From a virus: 64,000 nt of DNA. The notes beneath the pieces were generated by a model that worked only from the letters and a program-made list of their open reading frames with translations, was not told where the DNA came from and ran no database searches. A program made the position numbers and the translations under genes. Positions 15,656 to 56,409 of this stretch are shown piece by piece. The DNA is taken from positions 48,302 through 112,301 of the IMG/VR virus record IMGVR_UViG_3300024289_000019. One strand, written 5' to 3'. Within the stretch, counting starts at the first letter, position 1. The number at the start of each line of letters is the position of its first letter.

Positions 15656-15947
15656 TCTAGGCGTAGACTCAGATGATTTTGAATGGTGGCATCTAGCGGC
15701 TTGTAATGGAATGGAAACAAATTTATTTTATGATAAATATGAGTCTGATTTCAATATAGCCAAAAATATAGATGAGATGTGTTTGAGTTGTCCAGTTATA
15801 CAAGAATGTCTGATTGCTGGATATCAAAACAATGAATATGGTGTATGGGGTGGAATATACTTAAATTCTGGTTCAACAGATAAAGCACGTAATGTGCACA
15901 AAAAACCAGAAATATGGAAAAGATTAAAAGATAAACATGGACATTAA
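15636..15947 (+). CDS. whiB: WhiB-family Fe-S transcription factor
   Basis: W...AAC...C..CPV..EC...YGVWGG. Confidence 0.92.
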   Translation: MSNILNDLGVDSDDFEWWHLAACNGMETNLFYDKYESDFNIAKNIDEMCLSCPVIQECLIAGYQNNEYGVWGGIYLNSGSTDKARNVHKKPEIWKRLKDKHGH

Positions 15948-43007: not shown

Positions 43008-44006
43008 ATGAATATTTCTTATTACACAGTAAAAGCAGGATTAAATCCTGCTGTTGGCTTTGGCTATGCTGGACAAAATATTGTAAAATCATTGCAAAGT
43101 TTAGGACACAAAGTAACTTTTGCGGATCCAAGAGCTCATGTACAATTAATGTTTACACAGCCAGATAATTTTAAATTTCATAGAAATCAATACCAAATTG
43201 GTTATACACCATGGGAATCAACATCTATGGATCCCGCCTGGGCAGATAAATTTAATCTATGTGATGAAGTTTGGGCTACATCACAATGGACTGCAGATGT
43301 TTTTAAACAAAACGGTGTAGAAAAAGATATCAAAGTATATCGTCATGGAATTGAAAGTTTATGGAAACCAAAGAAAAGAATTTTAAAAGATGATGGAGTT
43401 TTTAAATTTCTTCATATTGGTGAACCTTCTCCAAGAAAAGATGGTCAATTAGTTGTTGACACATTTATTAAATTGTTTGGTAATAACCCAAAATATCACT
43501 TAACAATCAAGGCGCATCTATTTAATACTATTAGAGTATATAATAATTATAATATATTATCTTTACCTAATATATATAATAATATATCTATTATAACAGA
43601 TGAATATGACACTAGTCAACTATTATTTTTATATCACTCTCATCATGCACTTGTTTATCCAACTTGGGGAGAAGGATTTGGATTTATTCCATTACAAGGT
43701 TTAGCAACTGGAATGCCAGTTATTTCAACTTATGATTGGGCAGATTACAAAGAATTTCTTGGACCTCTAAAGCTAAAGTCAACATTGACAGATGATTCAC
43801 TTCCAAAATCAGTAGGACATACTTATGTTGGGAAAATGTATCGTCCAGATAAACAACATCTTGAAGAATTAATGTTAGAGTGTGTTATAAATTATAAAGC
43901 TTATTCTGGTTATTATTTTGCTCAATCAGAAAAAGTACATGAAAAATATAATTGGATCCAGTTGACTAAGAATGCTTTTGAAGATTTAAATAAAAAATTT
44001 TCTTAA
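43008..44006 (+). CDS. GT-B (family 4-like) glycosyltransferase
   Basis: TPWEST, DEVW..S, RKDG, EGFGFIPLQGLATGMPVI. Confidence 0.88.
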   Translation: MNISYYTVKAGLNPAVGFGYAGQNIVKSLQSLGHKVTFADPRAHVQLMFTQPDNFKFHRNQYQIGYTPWESTSMDPAWADKFNLCDEVWATSQWTADVFKQNGVEKDIKVYRHGIESLWKPKKRILKDDGVFKFLHIGEPSPRKDGQLVVDTFIKLFGNNPKYHLTIKAHLFNTIRVYNNYNILSLPNIYNNISIITDEYDTSQLLFLYHSHHALVYPTWGEGFGFIPLQGLATGMPVISTYDWADYKEFLGPLKLKSTLTDDSLPKSVGHTYVGKMYRPDKQHLEELMLECVINYKAYSGYYFAQSEKVHEKYNWIQLTKNAFEDLNKKFS

Positions 44007-44093
44007 CTCTTGCCCTCTAAAAAATTTTTAGGTATACTTAGACTTACCCAAAAAACATAACAGTCGAAAATCGGCGGAAAGAGTATTTTAAAA

Positions 44094-46028
44094 ATGTCTA
44101 GAACTATTGATAACCCTTATGAAAACTTCATAGCCTTGTCTCGATATGCGAGATGGATTGAAGATGAAAATCGTCGTGAGACTTGGGGTGAAACCGTAGA
44201 TAGATATTTTTCTTTTATGCTTGATCATTTAAAGAATAACTACAACTATTCTCCTGAATCAAAATTTGTTGAAGAATTAAAAGAAGCAGTTTATAGCAGA
44301 AATGTTATGCCATCAATGAGGGCTGTAATGACTGCAGGAACAGCTCTTGCAAGAGACAATGTTGCAGGATATAACTGTTCATTTGTTCCAGTAGATTCTC
44401 CAAGATCTTTTGACGAAACAATGTATATACTAATGTGTGGAACAGGTGTAGGTTTTTCTGTTGAATACAAGTATGTTAATAAACTTCCTGCCGTCCCAGA
44501 ATCATTTGAAAAATCAACCACTACTATCGTTGTAGAAGATTCAAAGAATGGTTGGGCAAAATCTTATCGTGAACTTCTAGCAATGCTTTGGGCAGGACAA
44601 ATTCCTTCTATTGATGTTTCTAAACTTCGTCCAGCAGGTGCACGTCTTAAGACTATGGGTGGTAGATCATCTGGTCCACAGCCACTAATCAACCTTTTTG
44701 ATTTTACTATTGCTAAATTTAAGCAAGCAGCAGGACGTCAATTAAAGCCCATTGAAGCACATGACATAATGTGTAAGATTGGTGAAGTAGTAGTTGTTGG
44801 TGGAGTTCGTCGTTCTGCAATGATTTCTCTATCTAATATTAATGATATTGAAATGGCTGCAGCAAAATCTGGTAATTGGTGGGAACAAAATTCTCAACGT
44901 GCCTTGTCCAACAATTCAGTAGCATACTCTCGTAAACCAGCAATGGAACAATTTATTGCGGAATGGAAAAATTTATATGACTCAAAATCTGGTGAGCGTG
45001 GCATATACAATGTTGCCGCTGCTCAAAAACAAGCAGCAAGATGGGGACGTAGAGACCCTGAAATTCACTACGGAACTAACCCCTGTTCAGAGATTATTCT
45101 CAGACCTTACCAGTTTTGCAACTTATCTGAAGTTGTAATTCGTGAAAAAGATACAAAAAAGGATATTGAGCGAAAAGTTGTTTTAGCTACAATTCTTGGA
45201 ACATGGCAATCAACTTTAACTGACTTTAAATATCTTCGTAAAGTATGGAAAGATAATACAGAAGAAGAGCGCCTATTAGGTGTTTCTATTACTGGACAAT
45301 TTGGACATAAGTTTATGTCTGGTCAAGAAGGGCTTGATAAACTTGGAAAGTTCTTAAATGAACTCAGAGATCTTGCTAGAGCTTGGAATAAAGAAGAAGC
45401 AGAGTCTTTAGGCATTAATCCATCTGCTGCAATTACTTGTGTAAAACCATCAGGAACCGTTTCACAATTAACTGGAGTTTCTTCAGGAATGCATCCCTGG
45501 CATTCTCCATATTACATTCGCACAGTTCGTGGAGATAAAAAAGATCCACTTTCAACTTTCTTAAAAGAAGTTGGAATTCCATATGAAGATGATTTCATGA
45601 AGCCAAATGACACTTATGTATTTTCATTTCCAGTAAAAGCACCAGAAGGTGCAATTGTTCGTGATGATTTAACAGCCTTGGATCATTTGAATACTTGGCT
45701 TGTGTATCAACGTGAATGGTGTGAACATAAACCTTCTATTACCGTATCAGTAAAAGAAGATGAGTGGATGGAGGTAGGCGCTTGGGTTTATCATTATTTT
45801 GATGAAGTATCTGGTATTTCATTTTTGCCCCATTCCGATCATTCATATAAGCAGGCTCCATATCAAGAAATTACAGAAACAGAATACTTAGAGTTACTTG
45901 CTAAAATGCCTTCTAATATTCGCTGGGAAGATTTGTCTTTTTACGAGACAGAGGACGGGACAAGTGGCACACAGACGCTTGCCTGTACATCAGACGGTAA
46001 CTGTGAAATTGTAGATATTACCGCCTAG
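44094..46028 (+). CDS. nrdJ: class II (B12-dependent) ribonucleotide reductase
   Basis: YNCSF, GTGVGFS, TNPCSEI, FCNLSE, TCVKPSGTVSQL, C-terminal Cys pair; no beta subunit adjacent. Confidence 0.9.
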   Translation: MSRTIDNPYENFIALSRYARWIEDENRRETWGETVDRYFSFMLDHLKNNYNYSPESKFVEELKEAVYSRNVMPSMRAVMTAGTALARDNVAGYNCSFVPVDSPRSFDETMYILMCGTGVGFSVEYKYVNKLPAVPESFEKSTTTIVVEDSKNGWAKSYRELLAMLWAGQIPSIDVSKLRPAGARLKTMGGRSSGPQPLINLFDFTIAKFKQAAGRQLKPIEAHDIMCKIGEVVVVGGVRRSAMISLSNINDIEMAAAKSGNWWEQNSQRALSNNSVAYSRKPAMEQFIAEWKNLYDSKSGERGIYNVAAAQKQAARWGRRDPEIHYGTNPCSEIILRPYQFCNLSEVVIREKDTKKDIERKVVLATILGTWQSTLTDFKYLRKVWKDNTEEERLLGVSITGQFGHKFMSGQEGLDKLGKFLNELRDLARAWNKEEAESLGINPSAAITCVKPSGTVSQLTGVSSGMHPWHSPYYIRTVRGDKKDPLSTFLKEVGIPYEDDFMKPNDTYVFSFPVKAPEGAIVRDDLTALDHLNTWLVYQREWCEHKPSITVSVKEDEWMEVGAWVYHYFDEVSGISFLPHSDHSYKQAPYQEITETEYLELLAKMPSNIRWEDLSFYETEDGTSGTQTLACTSDGNCEIVDITA

Positions 46029-47150: not shown

Positions 47151-48653
47151 ATGGCAAGAAAATTTTTAGTTAGTTTAGATCTCTCAAAGAATGAGCTTTT
47201 GAATGCTCGTATTCAAAACCTTCCTTCTGCATCTAAACCACAAAATCCAGTCACTGGTCAAATTTATTATGATACCACTGACAACTTCCTCTATTTCTGG
47301 AATGGCACAACATGGCTAAGAGCATCAGGTGATTTTGGAAACGGTGGACTCACATCCTCTCTATTCTTTGGTAATACAAATTCCGACGGCGTAGCAACAT
47401 CGGTTGCTCGTGCAGATCATACACACGATATTCCAGACGTACTAGGTACAGCTGGTCAAATTGATGTTTCTAAAAATGAAATTACTGGAGATGCAACATT
47501 CTCTCTTATTAATACTGGCGTAACAGCTGGTACTTATGGTGCAGTAGATACATCAGTAACATTTACAGTTGATGCTAAAGGTAGAATTACTTCTGCATCA
47601 CAAGCAGCAATTTCAATTTCAACAGATCAAGTAAATGGACTTCAAGAATATATTGAAGACAAGGTTGGAAATCTTGTTGTTGCTGGAGAAGGCATTGATG
47701 TAACTTATGATGATGCCGCAGGACATTTTACAATTGATGCAGAGCTTGCAACAGATACCAATAGAGGTGTAGCTAGCTTTGATGCAACAGATTTTACAGT
47801 AACATCTGGCAATGTAACTCTTAATTCAGAAAGAGTGCAAGACATTGTTGGCGGAATGGTTACTGCTCCAAATACCGAATCAGGTATTACAGTCACATAT
47901 GACGATGCAAATGGAAAACTAGATTTTAATGTAAACGATCCTACAATTACAATAAGCGGTGACGTATCTGGTTCCGCAGTAATGACAAACCTTGGAAATG
48001 TAGAAATTACTACAACAATCCAGCCAAACTCCGTAGCTCTTGGAACAGACACTACAGGAGATTATGTAGCTGGTATTCAAGGAACTGCAAATGAAATTGA
48101 AGTAACAAATTCAGGCGGAGAAGGATCAGTAGTTACAATTGGTCTTCCAAACGATGTATCAATTGCTGGAACTCTTAATGTTGGTGGCAGCCTAAACGTA
48201 CAGGGCTCAATTAACTCTGTAAATACAACTCAAGTAAATATCTCTGATAATAAGATTAATCTTAACAGCGATATGCCACACAACCAGGCCCCAAGCGTTG
48301 ATGCTGGAATTATTGTTCATCGTGGACAAGAAGCTGATGCACTTTTAACATGGGATGAAACACAAGATGCTTGGACCACTGGTCTTGATGGCGGTAGACA
48401 ATATGCTGTAGCACGTAAATTTGCTGCAGATCTTTCAGACTCAGCACAATATGTAACAGTAAGTAATGCTGGAGCAGTCTTTGTTGTTAATCATGGATTA
48501 AATAGTAGAGATATTGCAATTCAAGTTTATGAAACTGCAGCTGAATGGAATAACGTTGAAGTTGATACAGAAAGAACCACTGCTAACACAGTAACAATAA
48601 GATTTGCAACTGCGCCAGCAAACGGAGCATACAGAGTAGTTATAACAGGATAA
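47151..48653 (+). CDS. tail fibre/structural protein
   Basis: GQIYYDT, ARADHTH, TVDAKGRITSAS, YRVVITG. Confidence 0.75.
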   Translation: MARKFLVSLDLSKNELLNARIQNLPSASKPQNPVTGQIYYDTTDNFLYFWNGTTWLRASGDFGNGGLTSSLFFGNTNSDGVATSVARADHTHDIPDVLGTAGQIDVSKNEITGDATFSLINTGVTAGTYGAVDTSVTFTVDAKGRITSASQAAISISTDQVNGLQEYIEDKVGNLVVAGEGIDVTYDDAAGHFTIDAELATDTNRGVASFDATDFTVTSGNVTLNSERVQDIVGGMVTAPNTESGITVTYDDANGKLDFNVNDPTITISGDVSGSAVMTNLGNVEITTTIQPNSVALGTDTTGDYVAGIQGTANEIEVTNSGGEGSVVTIGLPNDVSIAGTLNVGGSLNVQGSINSVNTTQVNISDNKINLNSDMPHNQAPSVDAGIIVHRGQEADALLTWDETQDAWTTGLDGGRQYAVARKFAADLSDSAQYVTVSNAGAVFVVNHGLNSRDIAIQVYETAAEWNNVEVDTERTTANTVTIRFATAPANGAYRVVITG

Positions 48654-48657
48654 CAAC

Positions 48658-48957
48658 ATGGCAAGACAATTTCTAGCAACTCTGTCACTGCCAACACTTC
48701 CAAGTCATCCGACTGACGGACATGCTGGATCTTTATATTACAATACATCAATGAGTGCATTGATGATGCATACTGGTTCAACTTGGATGCCAGTAAATTC
48801 TAATCAATATGTTTTAGAAGACCATATTCATACATATGATGGACCAATACATACTGTCATTGCTGGATCTTATAACCCTAATTTAACAATATTTGATGGT
48901 GGCGATGGCGGAACACAATATTCTTCAGATACAAATCTTGATGGAGGACTTTCATAA
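48658..48957 (+). CDS. small structural protein
   Basis: GSLYYNT...W motif like the upstream fibre N-terminus. Confidence 0.65.
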   Translation: MARQFLATLSLPTLPSHPTDGHAGSLYYNTSMSALMMHTGSTWMPVNSNQYVLEDHIHTYDGPIHTVIAGSYNPNLTIFDGGDGGTQYSSDTNLDGGLS

Positions 48958-50444
48958 TGGCAATTAGAATTCAACTACGTAGAGATACTGAAGCAAACTG
49001 GATTTTAAAAGACCCAATTCTAAAACCAGGAGAACTTGCATTATCACTTGATAAAGGAAGATTTAAATGTGGATTTTCTGAAACATCAAAATGGTCTGAT
49101 TGTTATTATTTGAATGTATTGCCTTCAGAATTAGCTGAAGCAGCTCAGGATGCAATAGGGCTTGCAGTAAATCATAATGATCATTCTCATATTACAGTAA
49201 CATATAATGACTCTACCAATAAATTTGTATTTGCCACAGCCCCAGAAGTAGTTTTAAGTGGTGGACTAAATGATACTTTAGAAGATTATGTAACTTTAGC
49301 ATATTTTACTGGATTAATTGATGAAGCAAATGGAATTCCATCTTTAGATAATAATTCTTTAATTGATCCAGCACAAATACCACCATCCATTGCTAGATTA
49401 GCGTCTCCAACTTTTACTGGAACAGTTTCTGGGATTACAAAATCTATGGTAGGACTTTCAGATGTAGATAACACATCTGATGCAAATAAACCAATATCTA
49501 CAGCAACGCAAACCGCCCTTAACTTGAAAGCTCCATTAGCATCTCCAACATTTACAGGAACTACAACAACAGGAAACTTATCTGTATCTGGAAACCTTAC
49601 AGTTACTGGTGCAACAACAACTCAATCAACACAAAATCTTTCTGTTGCTAATCCACTTATCTACGTTGGAGAAAATAATCAATCAAACATTATTGACGTA
49701 GGAATAGTTGGAAGTTTTAATGATGGAACTTATCAACATACAGGCCTTGCAAGAGATCATACTCAAAATAAATGGAGACTTTTTAAAGGGGTTTCTACCG
49801 AACCAACAACAGTTATTAATTGGACTCAGGCAGTAGCAGATGATTTAATTGTTGGTGGCTTAAATGCATCTACAGTATCCGCAACTACATCAATTACTAC
49901 ACCCTCGTTGACAGCATCCACACTTATAACAACTGCAGGACTTACAGTAACAGGAACATTGACAATTCCAACAGAATCAATTAAAAGTTCTGATTTAGAA
50001 TGGGAACACTATGCAAATGAATCAGACCTTCCTTCCGCAGCAACAAAGCATGGAATGTTTGCACATGTTCATGGCACTGGAGCGGCATACTATGCTCATT
50101 CTGGATCCTGGTACAAGCTTGCTAAGGTTACAGATATATCAGACAATAACTTAACTACAATATCTCAACAAACAGCATCATATACCCCAGGCTTAATGGA
50201 TGCTTTTAAATTAATTGAAATGACAACAGGAACACTCACCTTGCCAAATGATGCAACAGTAAATTTCCCAGTTGGAACATATATAGAGGTTTTACAAACC
50301 ACAACAAATCAAATAACAATCAACGGAACAGGCTTTACCCCAAATGCAACACCTGGATTAAAGTTAAGAACTCAATGGAGTAGCGCAACCTGTTTAAAAC
50401 GTGGCGCTAATTCGTGGGTGGTATTTGGAGACTTGGTTGCATAA
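48957..50444 (+). CDS. tail fibre with Mtd-N-like N-terminus
   Basis: IQLRRDT..NW...P.L..GE; GL.DVDNTSDANKP.S; LASPTFTG repeats; W...GDL end. Confidence 0.8.
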   Translation: MAIRIQLRRDTEANWILKDPILKPGELALSLDKGRFKCGFSETSKWSDCYYLNVLPSELAEAAQDAIGLAVNHNDHSHITVTYNDSTNKFVFATAPEVVLSGGLNDTLEDYVTLAYFTGLIDEANGIPSLDNNSLIDPAQIPPSIARLASPTFTGTVSGITKSMVGLSDVDNTSDANKPISTATQTALNLKAPLASPTFTGTTTTGNLSVSGNLTVTGATTTQSTQNLSVANPLIYVGENNQSNIIDVGIVGSFNDGTYQHTGLARDHTQNKWRLFKGVSTEPTTVINWTQAVADDLIVGGLNASTVSATTSITTPSLTASTLITTAGLTVTGTLTIPTESIKSSDLEWEHYANESDLPSAATKHGMFAHVHGTGAAYYAHSGSWYKLAKVTDISDNNLTTISQQTASYTPGLMDAFKLIEMTTGTLTLPNDATVNFPVGTYIEVLQTTTNQITINGTGFTPNATPGLKLRTQWSSATCLKRGANSWVVFGDLVA

Positions 50445-51529
50445 TGAAAAAATCAAGTAAAAGATCTAAATTAACATCCAGAACATACGTACCAGATTTA
50501 ACTGGTTTAACAAGAGCTCAAGCTGAAGCTGCATTAACTGCAGCAGGACTTAAATTTACTTCCTCAAGTATTGTTACAAATTATTCAAACGAAGATCAAA
50601 AATTTACTTCTTTGCCAACATATACAACTAATCAAGTTGTTCCACGTGAAACAACAATTGATTTTGTTTATAAAGCTTATCAAGGAATAGCCGTTCCAAA
50701 CGTTAATGGCCTTTCTCAAACTGCTGCCACAACAGCAATTACTGGCGCTGGATTAGTTGTTGGTACAGTTTCTGGAACAACAGGCTCAGACTCCAGTCTT
50801 GATCAAAAAATTACAGGTCAAAGCGTTTCGGCAGGAAGTTTAGTTGATAGAGGAACAACTATTAATTTAACTTTATATACATATGTGGCGCCATACAATA
50901 ACCCATATAGTAATCCGCCGCCATATGGAAACTACAGCAATTATAGTAATTATGATAATTATAGTAATTATGGTAATTATAATAATTATAGTAATGTGCC
51001 AGCAGATCCACCTTCAACTCCACCTGCAGATCCACCAATTAGCGTCACATGGAAAAGCTTAGGAGTACACACACTTGTCAGAACGCCAGAAGGTTTGGTT
51101 GCTGCTGGAAGTTTAAAAGTAGGAGATGTTTTAATTTCTGCAAATATTGAAGGCGTTCCATATATGTCTACACCAGAATCTTTTCAGAGTATTTATAATT
51201 GGACTGACTCAAATCCAAATATTGAATATACAACAACAACTGTTGTAATGGTTCACAAAAAAATTGGAGATACGGTTGTAGCAATTAATGGAGATATATT
51301 TTCTCAATACCATTATGTTTTAGTAAAAAGAGACGGACTTGCAAGATTTATAGCAACAGGAGATATTGTTGAGTCTGATCAAATATATAGTTATGCATCG
51401 AATTCGTTTGTGCCAATAACAATGCTTCAATCCGTTCCAGTTTCTCATGAAATTATTTCTATAGACTGTGAACCATATGACATATTTTTTACTTCAGAAA
51501 TGTTGGTACACGACTCGGTTTCGATTTAA
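50444..51529 (+). CDS. PASTA-domain protein with (NYx)7 repeat and C-terminal Hint domain
   Basis: VPDLTG..AEAAL..AGL and VPNVNG..A...I..AGL; Hint blocks SLGVHTLV..PEG...LKVGD, SQYHYVLV, FFTSEMLVHD. Confidence 0.8.
   Translation: MKKSSKRSKLTSRTYVPDLTGLTRAQAEAALTAAGLKFTSSSIVTNYSNEDQKFTSLPTYTTNQVVPRETTIDFVYKAYQGIAVPNVNGLSQTAATTAITGAGLVVGTVSGTTGSDSSLDQKITGQSVSAGSLVDRGTTINLTLYTYVAPYNNPYSNPPPYGNYSNYSNYDNYSNYGNYNNYSNVPADPPSTPPADPPISVTWKSLGVHTLVRTPEGLVAAGSLKVGDVLISANIEGVPYMSTPESFQSIYNWTDSNPNIEYTTTTVVMVHKKIGDTVVAINGDIFSQYHYVLVKRDGLARFIATGDIVESDQIYSYASNSFVPITMLQSVPVSHEIISIDCEPYDIFFTSEMLVHDSVSI
50930..50995 (+). repeat. seven tandem 9-bp units (AAYTAYRRY) encoding Asn-Tyr-x
   Basis: aactacagc aattatagt aattatgat aattatagt aattatggt aattataat aattatagt. 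Confidence 0.95.
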
Positions 51530-51530
51530 A

Positions 51531-52022
51531 ATGTTATTGAAATGGCCAGATGTACTAAACGGATATTGGATGCAAGTCACTAAGTTTGATAATCATCCTA
51601 CTTTAAATTACTGTGGATCACTTTATAAAAATAATAAACATAAAAGTGGAACAATAATTTTATCAAATTATATATTAAATGATTATCCAGACATCTATGC
51701 AACTTTAGATAAAAATAATGAGTTAAACAGGGTATATACAAATCCCTCTTTAAGACCTTCACATGTTTGGGAATGGTTGGGAGTTGTTAGTAAACTTTTT
51801 TTTATTAATAATTTGAAAGATGATTTTCAGGCACCAAAAATAAGAAATAAAACAGCTCAAAATGGATATTTTAGATCTCAAAAAATAATGAATCAGTTAG
51901 ACAAGTATAGTCTTGATGAATTGACCTTTACAGACCATATTGAAGAACCACCAAGAGATTTTATGTATCCTACCATATGGTACAATAAAAGAATAAAAGA
52001 GGTAATTAATGAAAAGAATTGA
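51531..52022 (+). CDS. hypothetical protein
   Basis: follows the Hint protein directly. Confidence 0.65.
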   Translation: MLLKWPDVLNGYWMQVTKFDNHPTLNYCGSLYKNNKHKSGTIILSNYILNDYPDIYATLDKNNELNRVYTNPSLRPSHVWEWLGVVSKLFFINNLKDDFQAPKIRNKTAQNGYFRSQKIMNQLDKYSLDELTFTDHIEEPPRDFMYPTIWYNKRIKEVINEKN

Positions 52023-52530
52023 TTATTTAAATGGTATAGCATGTTTTGAAGAAGTCTCTAATGGAATAGATTTTTCTTTGGTTACTTATGAAAAAACAAA
52101 TAATTTTTTTGGAAATGAAATATATGAAGCAAGTTTTAATTTTGGCAAAAACGATAATAATTTAAAAATAAAAACATTTTTTTATAAAAGCATTTTTACA
52201 GCAGTAAATGATTATTGTAAAAATAATTTAATTGAAATAAAAAAAGATATGTGGATCAAATTTGAAAATCATTTAATACAATTTCCAGGAAATGAAGATC
52301 CGCAATTAAACAAAAGGTGTGCTGACTTAAATGAAGGAAAATATGTCATGTTATATTGTTTAGATACAATAAATGATGGAGGATTTATTACAATACCAAA
52401 TCAAAACTTTTCTATTCATTTGCAACAAAATTCAATGTTAGTTTTTCCAACTGGTAAAGATTATGAATATAATATTCATAAAATTGGTGGCAATAAAGAA
52501 AGAAAATTTATAGAAATGGTTATTGGATGA
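52009..52530 (+). CDS. degenerate 2OG-Fe(II) oxygenase-fold protein
   Basis: DGG.I..P, MLVFP, terminal R; HxD not evident. Confidence 0.5.
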   Translation: MKRIDYLNGIACFEEVSNGIDFSLVTYEKTNNFFGNEIYEASFNFGKNDNNLKIKTFFYKSIFTAVNDYCKNNLIEIKKDMWIKFENHLIQFPGNEDPQLNKRCADLNEGKYVMLYCLDTINDGGFITIPNQNFSIHLQQNSMLVFPTGKDYEYNIHKIGGNKERKFIEMVIG

Positions 52531-53072
52531 ATGTATTTAAAGTTGAAAAAGTTTTTGAACAATCCTATTTTGAATATGTTCAAGACTATTTTAAAAATCA
52601 TCATTTTTTAAACAATGCAGAATATGATTTTTATAACAGCAAAAGAATAGATTCTTTTGATGATTCAGTTTTAAAAAGTATATTACACACATTACATGAA
52701 CCAGCAAAAAAATGGTTTAATAATGAATCAATTGTTCCAACATATGCAATATTTTCAGAATACTCTGGACAACAAGCGCATCTAAATCCGCATAAAGATT
52801 CTGGTCCATGCACATATACTTTAGATATAGGTCTTTATCATGATACCCCATGGCCTTTGATAATTGAAGGAAAAGAATATTTATTTTTAGAAAACGAAGC
52901 TATTGGATTTTATGCCAACGATCAAGATCATTGGAAAAAAGAATTCCCAGACCCTGAAAAAAATAAAGTTGGAATATTATTAGTTCATTATGTTGACCCA
53001 GACCACATTTGGCTTACATTAAAGCCAGAAGTTCAAAAAATTGTAAGACAAAGAATTAAAACATTATCATGA
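52527..53072 (+). CDS. 2OG-Fe(II) oxygenase-like protein
   Basis: HKD..CTYT, WPL.IE, HW, HYV. Confidence 0.7.
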   Translation: MNVFKVEKVFEQSYFEYVQDYFKNHHFLNNAEYDFYNSKRIDSFDDSVLKSILHTLHEPAKKWFNNESIVPTYAIFSEYSGQQAHLNPHKDSGPCTYTLDIGLYHDTPWPLIIEGKEYLFLENEAIGFYANDQDHWKKEFPDPEKNKVGILLVHYVDPDHIWLTLKPEVQKIVRQRIKTLS

Positions 53073-53614
53073 TAACAAAAAACATTAATGTAGAAGGAAT
53101 TTCAAAAGCAATTGATGTTGTTAAAAATAATTTTGACAGTATTTATTTATTTGAGTCTGGAGATAGGGCAAAGTTACTAGATCAGATTGTCACATATGAT
53201 CCAAGACAATTTAATGTTTTTGGCATATATGATCAAGCAATATACCTAGCTTACAAGGACATAGTCGACTGCTTGATAGAAGAATGCAGTAATAAAAATG
53301 TTAATATTAAAAAATGTGAATATTATATTTCTTCTGAATATTTTAATTCAAAGGTTGATCCCAAATTTCTTTATGATTTTGGTGGGGTGTCAATTCCATG
53401 TTTTAATGGGCTAATTTCTTTACAAAATAAAGAAATTGTTGTATACTTAAATGGAAAAGAGCAGGCCTTATCGCAAGGTACCATGCTATTTTTTGAGTCT
53501 GGGAAAAGTATTAAATATGATGCTACAGAATTAGAATGTATATATTTTAATATTGCACCAAGATTCATGATTCAAGATCAATATCCATTCAAATGGATAC
53601 CTATAGGAGTATAA
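53069..53614 (+). CDS. hypothetical protein (possible double-stranded beta-helix fold)
   Basis: G.MLFFES, FNIAP; within the oxygenase cluster. Confidence 0.55.
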   Translation: MITKNINVEGISKAIDVVKNNFDSIYLFESGDRAKLLDQIVTYDPRQFNVFGIYDQAIYLAYKDIVDCLIEECSNKNVNIKKCEYYISSEYFNSKVDPKFLYDFGGVSIPCFNGLISLQNKEIVVYLNGKEQALSQGTMLFFESGKSIKYDATELECIYFNIAPRFMIQDQYPFKWIPIGV

Positions 53615-54250
53615 ATGGCAATTCAAGATATCACTGTTATATACAACTTTATATCTGAAGAGGAAAGAGTTATGCTTTTAGATTATGAAAAAAGCTTAAC
53701 CGAAAGGGATCTTTGGGAAAAAAGAAATTATGCTGATCCAGATAATCAGTGGACAAATAGGCATCTTTCTATAATTCATTTAACAATGCCAGAACATGGC
53801 TTTGGAACAGAGTACGATATTTCAATTGCTAAAAAAATGTGGGAAATAGAAAGCAGAATTAGAGAGCAGATAAAGAAGTCTTGGAATTTAAATAAAGAAA
53901 TTTGGCCAGACTGTTTTAATTTAATTCGTTGGCCACATGGTCAAGCGCAGCCACCTCATTCAGATTATGAAAACTTTGGAAGACTGCCTCATATATGGAA
54001 TTGGAGAGACATAGGTTGCGTATTGTATTTAAATGATGATTTTGAAGAAGGACATATTTACTTTCCACAACATAACCGTGAAATAAAAATTGTAGGTGGA
54101 ATGTTAGCATTTTTCCCAGGAGATATTCATCATGCTCATGGCGTGAAAGAGGTAAAAAATGGAACAAGGTATACGTTAAACACATTTTATACTTTTACAG
54201 AAGAACACAAATTTGAAGTAGATTTTAATAGAAAGTATCTTCCCTGGTAA
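53615..54250 (+). CDS. prolyl-4-hydroxylase-like 2OG-Fe(II) oxygenase
   Basis: HSD, LYLNDDFEEG, HGVKEV..GTRYT. Confidence 0.88.
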   Translation: MAIQDITVIYNFISEEERVMLLDYEKSLTERDLWEKRNYADPDNQWTNRHLSIIHLTMPEHGFGTEYDISIAKKMWEIESRIREQIKKSWNLNKEIWPDCFNLIRWPHGQAQPPHSDYENFGRLPHIWNWRDIGCVLYLNDDFEEGHIYFPQHNREIKIVGGMLAFFPGDIHHAHGVKEVKNGTRYTLNTFYTFTEEHKFEVDFNRKYLPW

Positions 54251-54642
54251 TGGCACACGATATAAAAGTTGAAACAAAAAGGTGGCAGATTAGAAAAATT
54301 GTTGACCTTGGCATAATGTGCATAAGAGTAAATACAATTATAAATGCTGCTCAAAGATATGAGACTGCAGTCTTTCAAACAGACATAGAGGGTAGAATGA
54401 GAGACATTGGAATTAAATATTATAAGCTTCATGGGTCTATGCAAGAAGCAATAGATTTTAATGAATTTTTTGTTAAAACCTTAAAATCTCAAGATTTTTC
54501 TGGTTTAGACGAAATACAGGTGTTTCAGAAATTAGATACCATATTTGCCGATTTTAAATATAATGATGGGCCATATCGTTGGTTTATGCCTGCTAAAAAT
54601 CCTCCAAATGTTGCTATTGGCCAAAAGCAAGAGGACATGTAG
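54250..54642 (+). CDS. hypothetical protein
   Basis: TAATG coupling. Confidence 0.6.
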   Translation: MAHDIKVETKRWQIRKIVDLGIMCIRVNTIINAAQRYETAVFQTDIEGRMRDIGIKYYKLHGSMQEAIDFNEFFVKTLKSQDFSGLDEIQVFQKLDTIFADFKYNDGPYRWFMPAKNPPNVAIGQKQEDM

Positions 54643-54672
54643 CGCTAACCAACAGCTTGGTATAATTGTAAT

Positions 54673-56409
54673 ATGGAAACGCTTTATCCAAGTCAAATTG
54701 ATACCTACGTCCAACCGAATGCAACCGATTCGGTTCAAACCGTTTCCCACTCAGCACAACATAGACGTTTAAATGATGCAATTTATAAACTACAGCTAAA
54801 AGTTGGAATCAATAACTCTCAAGACGTTAGTTCTATTGAAAATAGATTAACAACTTTAAAAAACTTTGTTGATGCAAGAGCTGTAGATTTAGGACAGCTA
54901 GAAGACAGCCTTGACGAGTATGTTACTTTAATTCAATACGAAAACGATAAAGGTGTTGCAATAGCAACCCTAGGCGTTGATGGAAAGCTTGATCCAGATC
55001 AAATACCTTCATCAATTGCAACAGATGCACAATCTAGAGCAGATGCAGCATTGTCTGCAGCAGGATTGTATACTGATCAAAAAATTGCCAATCTTGTAGA
55101 TTCAGCACCTGGAGCATTAAATACTCTTAATGAATTAGCTCAAGCATTAAATGATGATGCTAATTTTGCCTCAACAATGACAACTGCGCTGGCAGGAAAA
55201 TCTGCAGTAGGGCACACACATACTTCTTCTAATATAACAGATTTTGTTGAGGCTGCTCAAGATGCGGCTGGACTGTTATTTGGCCATTCTAATCATAATA
55301 ATGTTACTGCAACATATGATGATGAAAATAATAAAATAATTTTAAGCGTAACTCCACAATTAACACAAGAACAGGTTCAGGATTTTATTGTTCCGCTTTT
55401 CCAGAGCGCTAATAATAAAAATATGAATATCCTTTATGATGATGATAACAATACATTAATTTTAGAAGCAATTACAGAACCTTCTAAAGCGGTAATGTCT
55501 CCAACAGCTCCAGCAAATCCAGCAAACGGAGCATTTTGGCTTGATACAGATGAATTAAGATCTGGAGACGTACTTGCTCTTAAGATTTGGAATGCTACAG
55601 CAAATAAATGGGAGTATGCAGCATCAGAACTCAGCCTTGCAACAACAAATGTTTGGACATCTAAAAATACATTTACTCAAGGCGTTATTATTGGAACAAA
55701 CACCGCTCCATCAAATCCAGTAGAGGGTCAAATATATTATAACTTATTAGCAGAAAAATTAAGAGTGTTTGATGGTCTAGTTTGGAAAGATGTTTCTGGT
55801 GGCGCAGGTGGAGGCGGAGGACTTCCAAGCATTTCAACAGATGGAACAGCAACTCCAGCAACTTTATTTTTTGGAATGATAGCTCCACCATCAGCGGCAG
55901 CTTTAGAGGGAGACATTTGGTTTGATGTTGACGATCTTGGAACTCCATTTAATCAATTTTTTACTGGAACCACTGCTCCAGATCCAACTCAATATGAATT
56001 TTGGGTAGACCCAAATCCAGCTCCTGGAGAATTAATATATTCAGCAAATGAACCAACAACACCACAATATGAGGGTGAACTTTGGATAGACACAGATGAT
56101 TATGAAGGCCAATTGGTTGAAGTTGGGGCAACCGCTCCAAATCCAGACAACGTCCAGCTTTGGGTAGATGTAAATGATTTAGACACTCCATCTTATTATT
56201 CAAATTTAGTTTTTACAACATACGTAAATTATGCAGCTTTTCCAGTGGCTGGCTCAAAACCAGGAATGTTGGCAGTAGATAGTTCTACTGGCATAGTTTA
56301 TATATCAATCAATAATTTATGGGTTGCCCAGCCTCTTAAATTAGATCAAGACAAAATTAATAGACAATCTCAAAGTAATCAAGCCCTTATATGGATGGGC
56401 TTTTTATAA
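54673..56409 (+). CDS. tail fibre/structural protein
   Basis: LVDSAPGALNTLNELA.AL.DD.NFA; repeated AP..G..W.D motifs. Confidence 0.78.
   Translation: METLYPSQIDTYVQPNATDSVQTVSHSAQHRRLNDAIYKLQLKVGINNSQDVSSIENRLTTLKNFVDARAVDLGQLEDSLDEYVTLIQYENDKGVAIATLGVDGKLDPDQIPSSIATDAQSRADAALSAAGLYTDQKIANLVDSAPGALNTLNELAQALNDDANFASTMTTALAGKSAVGHTHTSSNITDFVEAAQDAAGLLFGHSNHNNVTATYDDENNKIILSVTPQLTQEQVQDFIVPLFQSANNKNMNILYDDDNNTLILEAITEPSKAVMSPTAPANPANGAFWLDTDELRSGDVLALKIWNATANKWEYAASELSLATTNVWTSKNTFTQGVIIGTNTAPSNPVEGQIYYNLLAEKLRVFDGLVWKDVSGGAGGGGGLPSISTDGTATPATLFFGMIAPPSAAALEGDIWFDVDDLGTPFNQFFTGTTAPDPTQYEFWVDPNPAPGELIYSANEPTTPQYEGELWIDTDDYEGQLVEVGATAPNPDNVQLWVDVNDLDTPSYYSNLVFTTYVNYAAFPVAGSKPGMLAVDSSTGIVYISINNLWVAQPLKLDQDKINRQSQSNQALIWMGFL

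Follow-up and report, generated by a model that had tools for sequence, protein, structure and literature searches.

Fibre and tailspike proteins of phages can carry the C-terminal domain Peptidase_S74, an intramolecular chaperone and self-cleaving domain with a Ser-Lys dyad protease. Among the BIL domains of the Hint superfamily (Amitai 2003, Dassa 2004, as far as summarised in PMC7765530) is that of C. thermocellum (PDB 2lwy). BIL2, from the BUBL locus of Tetrahymena (PDB 6tmm/6y75), attaches its N-extein to lysines. The Hint domain activates this extein at its C-terminus and hands it over to lysine amines without ATP (PMC8616854). Cyanomyoviruses possess multi-copy arrays of 2OG-Fe(II) oxygenases near structural genes (PMC3037559), and the PHROG matched by one of the oxygenase-like genes described below (o3) carries the label 'ferrochelatase domain' in cyanophage papers.

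The window analysed here, 64,000 nucleotides of DNA from an uncultured phage, contains the following cassette: a gene with PASTA repeats and a C-terminal BIL-like Hint domain is followed by six genes (o1-o6), several of them with an oxygenase fold. We found no description of this cassette layout in the searchable literature, and it may represent a new route to mature or attach phage surface proteins.

The precursor gene and its setting

The adhesin precursor gene (50444-51529; like all features below on the + strand) encodes 361 aa from an ATG at 50444 and has 98 relatives by sequence search. Its architecture recurs in 188 viral contigs, and its features are not due to chance. The ATG overlaps the stop codon of the upstream tail-fibre gene (TAATG). 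Between 48957 and 54642 each gene overlaps or directly adjoins the next, and nothing resembling a terminator is present in 48600-55000; expression of the cassette is therefore probably coupled to that of the tail-fibre genes. The original prediction had placed the cassette between tail-fibre genes, and the flanking genes of 495 and 578 aa indeed match many tail-fibre and minor-tail PHROGs. This gene position suggests that the precursor is associated with the virion; distant relatives bear the label 'virion structural protein' (PHROG, GenBank), which is a label only. The phage genome encodes WhiB, which points to a Gram-positive actinobacterial host and agrees with the PASTA head of the precursor.

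The two PASTA repeats, the Y-x-N/N-Y-x tract and the PADPP units of the original prediction are all present. A short basic N-terminal peptide (50444-50485) precedes the two PASTA repeats (approximately residues 15-145, 50486-50878), which Pfam PF03793 recognises in two stretches (E 6e-17, 61.8 bits, cut-off 23.2 bits); the NCBIfam model PknB_PASTA_kin matches them with its C-terminal part, and the family profile matches PknB PASTA structures (E 7e-15). The low-complexity spacer (residues 146-204, 50879-51055) ends in W-K204. Its translation contains ten Y-x-N and seven N-Y-x units, four of the latter N-Y-S, as well as two PADPP units, and its DNA holds 6.3 tandem copies of a 9-bp unit (50939-50995). 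The Hint domain (Ser205 to Asp357, 51056-51514) is followed by a tail of four residues, S358-V-S-I (51515-51526), i.e. a '+1' Ser and mini C-extein.

Among the relatives, the N-terminal cargo consists of one to four PASTA repeats, FN3, PKD-like, collagen-like or unknown domains, while the Hint domain and the lysine preceding it (Lys-1) are constant, which fits a domesticated processing module. A survey of related phages had been expected to reveal differing low-complexity tracts, and it did: the spacers of other lineages are of FNPG, FFPP, TPFGF, GAF or poly-Pro type. The spacer type depends on the lineage, yet Lys is always the last spacer residue. With 300-950 aa, these precursors are modular, adhesin-like proteins and not peptides of the RiPP type; the idea of a RiPP-like cassette is not supported.

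Fold and conservation of the Hint domain

The Hint domain starts with block A (S-L-G-V-H-T) at the Ser205 codon (51056), possesses block B (S287-Q-Y-H290) and terminates in V-H356-D357 before S-V-S-I, in agreement with the start, the block-B His and the ending that had been read from the sequence. No Pfam Hint model matches the domain, even at E 10. Structure prediction confirmed a genuine Hint fold: the AlphaFold2 model (pLDDT 89) matches Tetrahymena BIL2 (6tmm, VIA Z 17.1), a bacterial intein-like domain (2lwy, Z 16.7) and the Hedgehog autoprocessing domain (1at0, Z 16.5), and Foldseek reports a match with E 4e-8. About 30 intein/Hint chains reach a Z of at least 8, compared with 2.7 for the best unrelated chain. 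In the superposition, Ser205 coincides with the first residue of inteins and Asp357 with their terminal Asn.

Conservation was counted over 60 distinct family members that are only 40% identical. Ser1 (Ser205), Thr210, Ser287, His290, Glu343, Pro344, Asp346, Thr350 and Asp357 are conserved in 60/60 and Lys-1 in 59/60. His356 and Ser358 are each retained in 55/60 and change jointly to Tyr and Gly, Gly replacing Ser358 only in members with Tyr at the position of His356. Given the genuine Hint fold and the conservation of its catalytic residues, self-processing at the W-K/S junction is likely. The terminal Asp is atypical, and the C-terminal step may therefore differ or be absent.

One could argue that the mature protein retains the Hint domain, which would serve in structure or docking without being catalytic, and that the neighbouring genes are assembly chaperones: inactive Hint-like domains are possible, Asp stands in place of the terminal Asn, and the partners o2 and o4 are themselves pseudo-enzymes. 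We regard this as improbable, as precisely the catalytic positions (Ser1, block-B Ser/His, terminal Asp) are invariant in so divergent a family, and His356 and Ser358 are lost together. Hardly credible is a conventional selfish mini-intein that has entered a tail protein close to its end. The fold is intein-like, and the domain has Ser1, a block B, a penultimate His and a +1 Ser, but a homing endonuclease is absent, and in cargo proteins unrelated to each other the domain always lies at the extreme C-terminus, where it follows a low-complexity spacer. Moreover, no Hint-less allele was found among the relatives searched, Asp is invariant at the intein Asn position, Lys-1 is near-invariant, and the partner genes are fixed.

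The downstream genes and their linkage to the Hint gene

The six ORFs 3' of the Hint gene (51531-54642) overlap or abut and have a GC content of 22.6-33.1% versus 36.2% for the window, as expected from their description as coupled and AT-rich. The first, o1 (51531-52022), encodes a divergent GNAT-fold protein, as judged from its AF2 model (pLDDT 86.6; the top-50 VIA matches are all GNAT folds, Z 6-7.2) and from transitive Pfam hits, distant members of the o1 family passing the Pfam GNAT cut-offs. In its R-x-x-G motif, His replaces the Gly found in most relatives. A GTG at 51468 offers an alternative start for o1.

Four genes with an oxygenase fold follow. The second gene, o2 (52009-52530), falls together with o5-family proteins when HMM searches are iterated and is a paralogue of o5 that has lost the H-x-D...H triad. 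The 2OG-Fe(II) oxygenase-like o3 (52527-53072; PHROG 2954) aligns with the o5 family (hhalign 76%) and has an intact motif, H89-x-D91...H135 plus K147. For o4 (53069-53614), a double-stranded beta-helix (oxygenase/cupin) fold is indicated by alignment with the o5 family in register (hhalign 54%) and by Atlas structural neighbours in 2OG-FeII_Oxy_5 and cupin clusters (TM 0.65-0.73); the protein contains no His at all. An intact prolyl-hydroxylase-type 2OG-Fe(II) oxygenase is encoded by o5 (53615-54250), with a complete H-S-D...H...R motif and 37.6 bits against Pfam 2OG-FeII_Oxy_3 (PF13640, cut-off 27). The claim of at least two intact oxygenases thus holds for o3 and o5, and the iron-binding triad is absent from the other two of the four (o2, o4). 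The last gene, o6 (54250-54642), encodes a 130-aa protein of unknown fold found in close relatives and L034 only.

Linkage of such downstream genes to Hint proteins in other genomes, on which the original prediction depended, is strong. In 76 of the 78 loci with downstream sequence o1 lies immediately 3' of the Hint gene, a reverse search with o1 recovered an upstream Hint gene in 51/51 testable loci, and genes of the o4 family are located downstream in nearly all loci. The linkage persists on differing genomic backbones. Active oxygenases range from 0 to 6 per locus. Contrary to the proposed dedicated oxygenase cluster, the strict partners of the Hint gene are o1 and o4 rather than the active oxygenases; the GNAT fold of o1 and the metal-less oxygenase fold of o4 had both been overlooked.

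The o5/o2 family profile matches P3H1 (E 1e-14), the P4H of B. anthracis (2e-13) and of PBCV-1 (2e-9), and PHD2 structures. Its best relatives are hydroxylases acting on prolyl and lysyl residues of proteins, which makes the Pro-rich spacer a sensible substrate. Alternatively, and we consider this possible but doubtful, o2, o3 and o5 are unrelated auxiliary genes gathered at a hypervariable spot by the tail-fibre genes, as in cyanomyoviruses, and have nucleic acids, small molecules or host proteins as targets instead of the spacer. The copy number is variable and does not correlate significantly with the Pro content of the spacer (rho 0.29, p 0.16), which is compatible with this, as are similar multi-copy arrays in cyanophages without this Hint family (PMC3037559) and an island AT-richer than the remainder of the locus in 64/65 loci. 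The co-variation of spacer type and oxygenase set that the survey had been predicted to show was not significant, and several Pro-rich lineages have no adjacent active oxygenase. Against it stand the kinship with protein hydroxylases, their location between o1 and o4, the strict partners, inside one and the same operon of overlapping genes, and the three Pro-free (GAF-repeat) lineages, all without oxygenases. The proposed glycosylation is without support, because the glycosyltransferase at 43008 co-travels with a conserved 644-aa backbone gene and not with the cassette; the N-Y-S sequons are confined to the lineage of the window.

Proposed processing and comparison with known systems

On balance we favour a tail-fibre-module adhesin whose Hint domain activates Lys204-Ser205 and is itself lost from the mature product, with o1 and o4 as accessory factors and hydroxylation of the spacer by o3 and o5. 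The analysis shows the folds, the conserved residues, the gene linkage and the operon structure; the whole of the chemistry, like the association with the virion, we infer as follows. A late-expressed precursor would consist of a peptidoglycan-binding PASTA head, a disordered aromatic/Pro-rich spacer and the BIL-like Hint domain, which would perform an N-to-O acyl shift at Lys204-Ser205 to form an ester. Water could resolve this ester and release head and spacer; Ser358 could take them over, splicing them onto the four-residue tail with Asp357 in the role of the intein Asn; or an external acceptor could receive them. The Hint domain would be missing from the mature product in all three cases. 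The dedicated factors o1 and o4 would assist the processing step or the precursor, and o3 and o5, both intact and of the prolyl-hydroxylase type, would most likely hydroxylate the spacer.

A special case of such autoprocessing, which we think unlikely, is ligation: the Lys204 ester would be passed with GNAT-fold help to an amine or hydroxyl acceptor, hypothetically host peptidoglycan or a lysine residue in the baseplate or tail fibre, instead of being hydrolysed, and o1 would take a protein ester instead of acyl-CoA. Ester donors are known from GNAT-fold enzymes, for example the Fem transferases. The tight linkage of o1 in both search directions argues for ligation, as does the near-invariance of Lys-1, a residue dispensable for inteins, and the nearest structure, BIL2, makes Lys isopeptide conjugates (PMC8616854). 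However, the GNAT assignment is built on Z values of 6-7 and transitive hits, the R-x-x-G motif of the window's o1 is degenerate, and the conserved +1 Ser and His356 point to in-cis resolution of the ester in many members.

Returning to autoprocessing in general, the BIL domains share the fold (rmsd 1.7 over 130 residues for that of C. thermocellum), a weak match to the phage family profile (E 5e-4), the N-terminal nucleophile and block-B His, the absence of an endonuclease and the occurrence in variable, non-conserved, surface-type proteins. The phage domain differs in Ser1 instead of Cys, an invariant His-Asp instead of His-Asn end, the near-invariant Lys-1, its constant position at the extreme C-terminus (with a tail of 4-5 aa in most members), and its phage-borne setting, in which GNAT-like and oxygenase-fold partner genes are fixed. 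BIL2 is the best structural match, and conjugation to lysines would be a hypothetical activity of the phage protein; unlike the latter, BIL2 is eukaryotic, with ubiquitin-like cargo, Cys1, a terminal Asn and no known partner enzymes. Hedgehog likewise has a functional N-terminal domain and a C-terminal Hint (Hog) domain that removes itself via an ester at its first residue, as proposed here for the phage protein. The latter stops four residues past the Hint fold and hence lacks the sterol-recognition region, and it possesses an intein-like +1 Ser and penultimate His.

The oxygenases resemble those of PBCV-1 (5c5t) and B. anthracis (3itq/5hv0), which the o5/o2 profile matches in the range of E 2e-9 to 1e-14, and the multi-copy arrays of cyanomyoviruses (PMC3037559), but here they lie within an operon that also encodes a Pro-rich candidate substrate, and half of the copies have lost the iron site. 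A search of 50,697 sequenced phage records gave a single relative (E 2e-6), a collagen-like 'virion structural protein' of Erwinia jumbo phages (Alexandravirus, e.g. NC_061447.1 gp111), also a fibre-type protein from a tail gene cluster with a terminal Hint domain and short tail. In contrast to the window's protein, it has a canonical Cys1, T-x-x-H, His-Asn and +1 Thr and a weak Pfam PT-HINT match (26.3 bits), and its gene has no GNAT-like or oxygenase-fold neighbours. Peptidase_S74 differs entirely in fold and chemistry from a Hint domain with its acyl shift, yet it is likewise a C-terminal domain of phage fibre proteins that removes itself once its job is done, as we propose for the Hint domain.

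A Hint-capped precursor among tail-fibre genes

The IMG/VR virus record is 112 kb long, and the window makes up its right-hand 64 kb. A gene for a WhiB protein is present in this genome (PF02467, 43.9 bits, cut-off 23.6). This gene (G000:C1:63985-64158, about 15684-15857 in the window) is a marker of actinobacterial phages and would fit an actinobacterial host. The Hint gene (50444-51529, plus strand) and the six ORFs downstream of it (o1 to o6, 51531-54642), together the cassette, belong to a same-strand run with a 495-aa gene (48957-50444) and a 578-aa gene (54673-56409), both of which have many tail-fibre and minor-tail PHROG matches. From this position we infer that the precursor encoded by the Hint gene is associated with the virion.

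The most likely start codon of the precursor ORF is ATG 50444, overlapping the stop codon of the upstream fibre gene (TAATG); from this start the protein comprises 361 residues. Its two PASTA repeats, recognized as PASTA-like in the original prediction, were borne out by Pfam (PF03793, two stretches, E 6e-17, 61.8 bits against a cut-off of 23.2), and the family profile matched PknB PASTA structures. Beyond residue 145 no Pfam or NCBIfam model matches the precursor. Residues 146-204 form a spacer with ten Y-x-N units, seven N-Y-x units (four of them N-Y-S) and two PADPP units, and its last residues are W-K. The N-Y part is encoded by a 9-bp tandem DNA array, and the repeat number of the spacer varies among close relatives. 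The N-terminal cargo is interchangeable among the relatives, featuring one to four PASTA repeats, FN3, PKD-like, collagen-like or unassigned regions in proteins of 190-950 aa total length. The spacer in front of the lysine that precedes the Hint domain (Lys204, Lys-1) is of low complexity in every lineage, and its types comprise N-Y, FNPG, FFPP, PPADPP, poly-Pro, TPFGF, GAF and PPPIIAS. Precursors of this kind are modular proteins of 300-950 aa with folded binding domains, unlike the short leader/core precursor peptide of a RiPP cluster with its small modified product, which speaks against the RiPP-like cassette proposed earlier.

The Hint fold predicted from position 51056 onward was confirmed by structure prediction. 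The AF2 model of residues 196-361, based on an alignment of 56 relatives, reached a mean pLDDT of 89 and a pTM of 0.85, and its top matches in Foldseek and in an exhaustive structural scan (VIA) alike were Hint-superfamily chains only. The closest was the Tetrahymena BIL2 domain (6tmm; Z 17.1, rmsd 2.2, 138 residues aligned), followed by the bacterial intein-like (BIL) domain of C. thermocellum (2lwy, Z 16.7), the Hedgehog autoprocessing domain (1at0, Z 16.5) and many inteins (Z 12-16); about 30 Hint chains scored Z>=8, and the first unrelated chain scored Z 2.7. Superposition places Ser205 (model residue 10, base 51056) on intein residue 1 and Asp357 (model residue 162) on the terminal Asn. 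Given this pairing, Ser358 takes the +1 position and S-V-S-I constitutes a four-residue C-extein. The domain spans 153 aa and carries no insert. None of the curated Hint models (Pfam Hint, Hint_2, PT-HINT, Intein_splicing, Vint) matches it at E<=10, and 2lwy was reached by the family profile only (E 5e-4).

Conservation was assessed in 60 distinct proteins, many of which are only about 40% identical; 80 loci were kept out of 188 IMG/VR contigs with relatives. Ser205 (Ser1), Thr210, Gly217, Gly227, Asp228, the block-B residues Ser287 and His290, as well as Ile340, Glu343, Pro344, Asp346, Thr350 and Asp357, are each present in all 60, and Lys-1 in 59. His356 and Ser358 are each found in 55 of the 60 and are jointly swapped for Tyr and Gly in one lineage. 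To judge by this pattern, the Hint domain is probably catalytically active, with a universal reaction at its N-terminal junction, and most members may carry out a C-terminal reaction as well. The terminal residue is Asp in all 60 proteins and Asn in none, despite the fact that a single base change would suffice, which argues that Asp itself is selected. In most members 4-5 residues make up the C-terminal tail; a few carry about 12-13, and one clade has tails of more than 40. A class 3 intein, with a block-F Cys as nucleophile, was considered and rejected: Cys342 occurs in just 49 of the 60 proteins, compared to Ser1 in every one. Some TPFGF-repeat phages (loci L072, L076 and L080) possess two Hint genes per fibre cluster, with tails of more than 40 residues; here o1 and o4 follow the second Hint gene only.

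The probable GNAT-fold partner and the oxygenase-type genes

The gene o1 (51531-52022; its start codon is uncertain, ATG 51531 or GTG 51468) lies directly 3' of the Hint gene in 76 of the 80 loci; of the four exceptions, two loci stop at the Hint gene (tblastn with the window proteins). A reverse search from o1 yielded 55 loci, and a Hint gene is located immediately upstream in all 51 that have upstream sequence. The gene order Hint, o1, o4-type gene and then a variable number of oxygenase-type genes recurs on several unrelated genomic backbones; the expected linkage of oxygenase-type genes to such repeat proteins in other genomes is upheld. Relatives of the Hint gene were found on 188 viral contigs in the IMG/VR scan, compared to a single contig among 185,579 prokaryote genomes. 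That contig, L083 (JBBRXZ010000043.1, 9.6 kb), comes from a Saccharimonadales MAG bin and has Hint, o1, o4 and o3 in this order; it is probably of phage origin. The Hint subfamily is essentially restricted to viruses. Among sequenced phages, neither a megablast search with the region nor tblastn with o1 and o4 returned a match, and a Hint relative occurs in Erwinia jumbo phages only.

The assignment of o1 to the GNAT fold is made with moderate confidence. All 50 best VIA matches of the o1 model (pLDDT 86.6) are GNAT-fold acyltransferases, with modest scores (Z 6.0-7.2, rmsd 3-4 A). Foldseek gave no match for this model at E<=0.001, the window copy itself has no Pfam match, a PDB sequence search with the o1 profile returned nothing meaningful, and an ESM Atlas features search produced noise only (zf-BED clusters at 0.89). 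Only 47 o1 clusters came out of 1.84 billion representatives in an exhaustive profile search. The protein P0198, matched by the o1 profile at E 4e-8, passes both Acetyltransf_7 (33.2 against 27) and Acetyltransf_1 (28.6 against 20.7); seven other distant family members show sub-threshold GNAT matches, P0198 alone exceeding the curated cut-offs. The family motif R-x-Y-T-N-P-x-x-R-R-x-G is reminiscent of GNAT motif A (R/Q-x-x-G-x-G/A, CoA pyrophosphate): Arg75 is present in 37/37 members and the Gly in 31/37 (His in the window copy), and the final position is mostly Trp or Leu. Most o1 relatives share a C-terminal tail E-P-P-R-D-P-x-Y-P-x-I-W-x-x-Q-R-I-G-G, and those of the window's lineage end otherwise (K-R-I-K-E-V...).

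The claim of intact oxygenase motifs in at least two of the downstream ORFs holds for o5 and o3, whereas o2 and o4 lack the iron triad. The o5 protein (53615-54250) passes Pfam 2OG-FeII_Oxy_3 (PF13640) with H-S-D...H...R intact, and o3 (52527-53072) retains H89-K-D91...H135...K147 and aligns to the o5 family with 76% hhalign probability. Upon HMM iteration o2 (52009-52530) merges into the o5 family; it has Leu and Tyr in the two His columns and no Asp in the Asp column, and the triad is likewise lost in 14 of the 48 o5/o2 family members. The o4 protein (53069-53614) contains no His whatsoever and hence no H-x-D/E...H triad, yet its fold is still oxygenase- or cupin-like: it aligns in register to the o5 family (hhalign 54%), and a structural comparison in the ESM Atlas places it next to 2OG-FeII_Oxy_5 and cupin clusters (TM 0.65-0.73). 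A PDB sequence search with the o4 profile returned nothing meaningful. Among solved structures the o5/o2 profile best matches prolyl 3-hydroxylase 1 (1e-14), B. anthracis P4H (2e-13) and PBCV-1 P4H (2e-9), and it also matches PHD2 and collagen lysyl hydroxylases. The last gene, o6 (54250-54642), occurs only in close relatives and in one further locus, L034. NCBIfam gave no match for any of o1 to o6.

Several unassigned genes of longer arrays from other lineages (L019:10358-11050, L072:9786-11999, L073:9456-10166) match Pfam DUF6065 (best E 5e-28), which indicates at least one further recurrent family in the arrays. In 64 of 65 loci o1 to o4 have a lower GC content than the remainder of the locus (median 31.7% vs 39.3%), and in o2 of the window it amounts to only 22.6%. 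Also AT-rich is the gene for a GT4-like glycosyltransferase at 43008-46028, constantly found just upstream of a 644-aa gene (orf644) that retains 85-90% identity across lineages with far more diverged fibre genes.

Possible reactions and substrates

Going beyond the observed folds, invariant residues, operon structure and synteny, we infer a chemistry for the Hint step in which Ser205 would attack the carbonyl of Lys204, assisted by the block-B His290, and form an ester. An intein-like reaction that joins head and spacer to the short tail could then follow in most members, carried out by Ser358 together with His356 and Asp357; otherwise the ester might be resolved by water or by an external nucleophile. 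Plain self-cleavage explains neither the near-invariant Lys-1 nor the obligatory GNAT-fold partner, and this suggests that Lys-1 is modified or that transfer of the activated C-terminus is catalysed. BIL2, the closest structure, hands its N-extein to lysine amines (PMC8616854).

A more far-reaching possibility, which we regard as unlikely, is that the Hint domain and the GNAT-fold protein act as a two-component protein ligase that fixes the adhesin covalently, an ester replacing acyl-CoA. The Hint domain would form a protein ester at Lys-1, the GNAT-fold protein would take this ester as acyl donor, the acceptor could be a tail-fibre or baseplate lysine or the amines of host peptidoglycan, and the hydroxylated aromatic/Pro spacer might serve as a tuned tether. 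If true, phage surface proteins would be attached by a sortase-like system that needs no ATP.

As prolyl-hydroxylase-type enzymes are encoded in the same overlapping operon, the Pro-rich spacer is the obvious candidate substrate. A nearby enzyme of this type is absent in three Pro-free GAF lineages, and also in four Pro-rich lineages. As to the predicted co-variation of spacer type and oxygenase set, across 26 lineage representatives, which are not phylogenetically independent, the rank correlation of oxygenases with Pro content is not significant (Spearman rho 0.29, p 0.16), and that with aromatic content is rho 0.38 (p 0.05). Glycosylation of N-Y-S by the glycosyltransferase at 43008 finds no support, because the sequons are lineage-specific and the enzyme is tied to orf644, which it accompanies in 13 loci, all from a single phage group.

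Should our reading of the cassette be right, these phages possess a distinct Hint subfamily (Lys|Ser ... Ser-x-x-His ... His-Asp|Ser) that is missed by curated models. Its pairing with a fixed acyltransferase-fold gene, which we did not find in the literature searched, would suggest a new acyl-transfer chemistry. Environmental phages carry multi-copy 2OG-Fe(II) oxygenase arrays, for which a role in DNA repair or in 2OG sensing was put forward in cyanophage genome papers (PMC3037559); the spacer would give these arrays a first concrete candidate substrate. Protein engineering could also benefit from a cap that removes or ligates itself on swappable receptor-binding heads.

Comparison with known Hint systems

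In its fold and its nucleophile (Ser1, with block-B Ser-x-x-His) the phage domain belongs to the Hint superfamily. A canonical (class 1) intein ends in His-Asn followed by Cys, Ser or Thr at +1, whereas the phage domain has Asp, and class 1 inteins are inserted at conserved positions within conserved host proteins, in contrast to the C-terminal location of the phage domain in unrelated cargo proteins. No Hint-less alleles of the phage adhesin genes were found among the loci examined. Literature searches on phage structural proteins with Hint domains, on PASTA repeats in phage tails and on a terminal Asp in inteins returned ordinary inteins or unrelated work only; no paper was found that describes a Hint domain of the Ser / His-Asp kind, a GNAT partner or the setting in a phage adhesin.

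The relative in the cultured Erwinia jumbo phage pEa_SNUABM_33 (NC_061447.1 gp111; L082:4002-5441) is a collagen-like "virion structural protein" with canonical Cys1, T-H-E-H, His-Asn and +1 Thr and a 10-residue tail. Unlike the cassette it has no GNAT or oxygenase neighbours, and it offers a tractable analogue of the Hint cap.

BIL domains, of A- and B-types, occur in variable bacterial proteins (PMC7765530), and like them the phage domain sits in variable, non-conserved, surface-type proteins and lacks an endonuclease. Its His-Asp end matches neither the A-type His-Asn nor the B-type C-terminal motif as described there (PMC7765530). In Hedgehog (Hog) proteins a sterol-recognition region follows the Hint fold, whereas the phage protein has just four residues past Asp357. 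Judged from its predicted structure and conserved residues, the phage Hint domain would work like a BIL or Hog autoprocessing cap.
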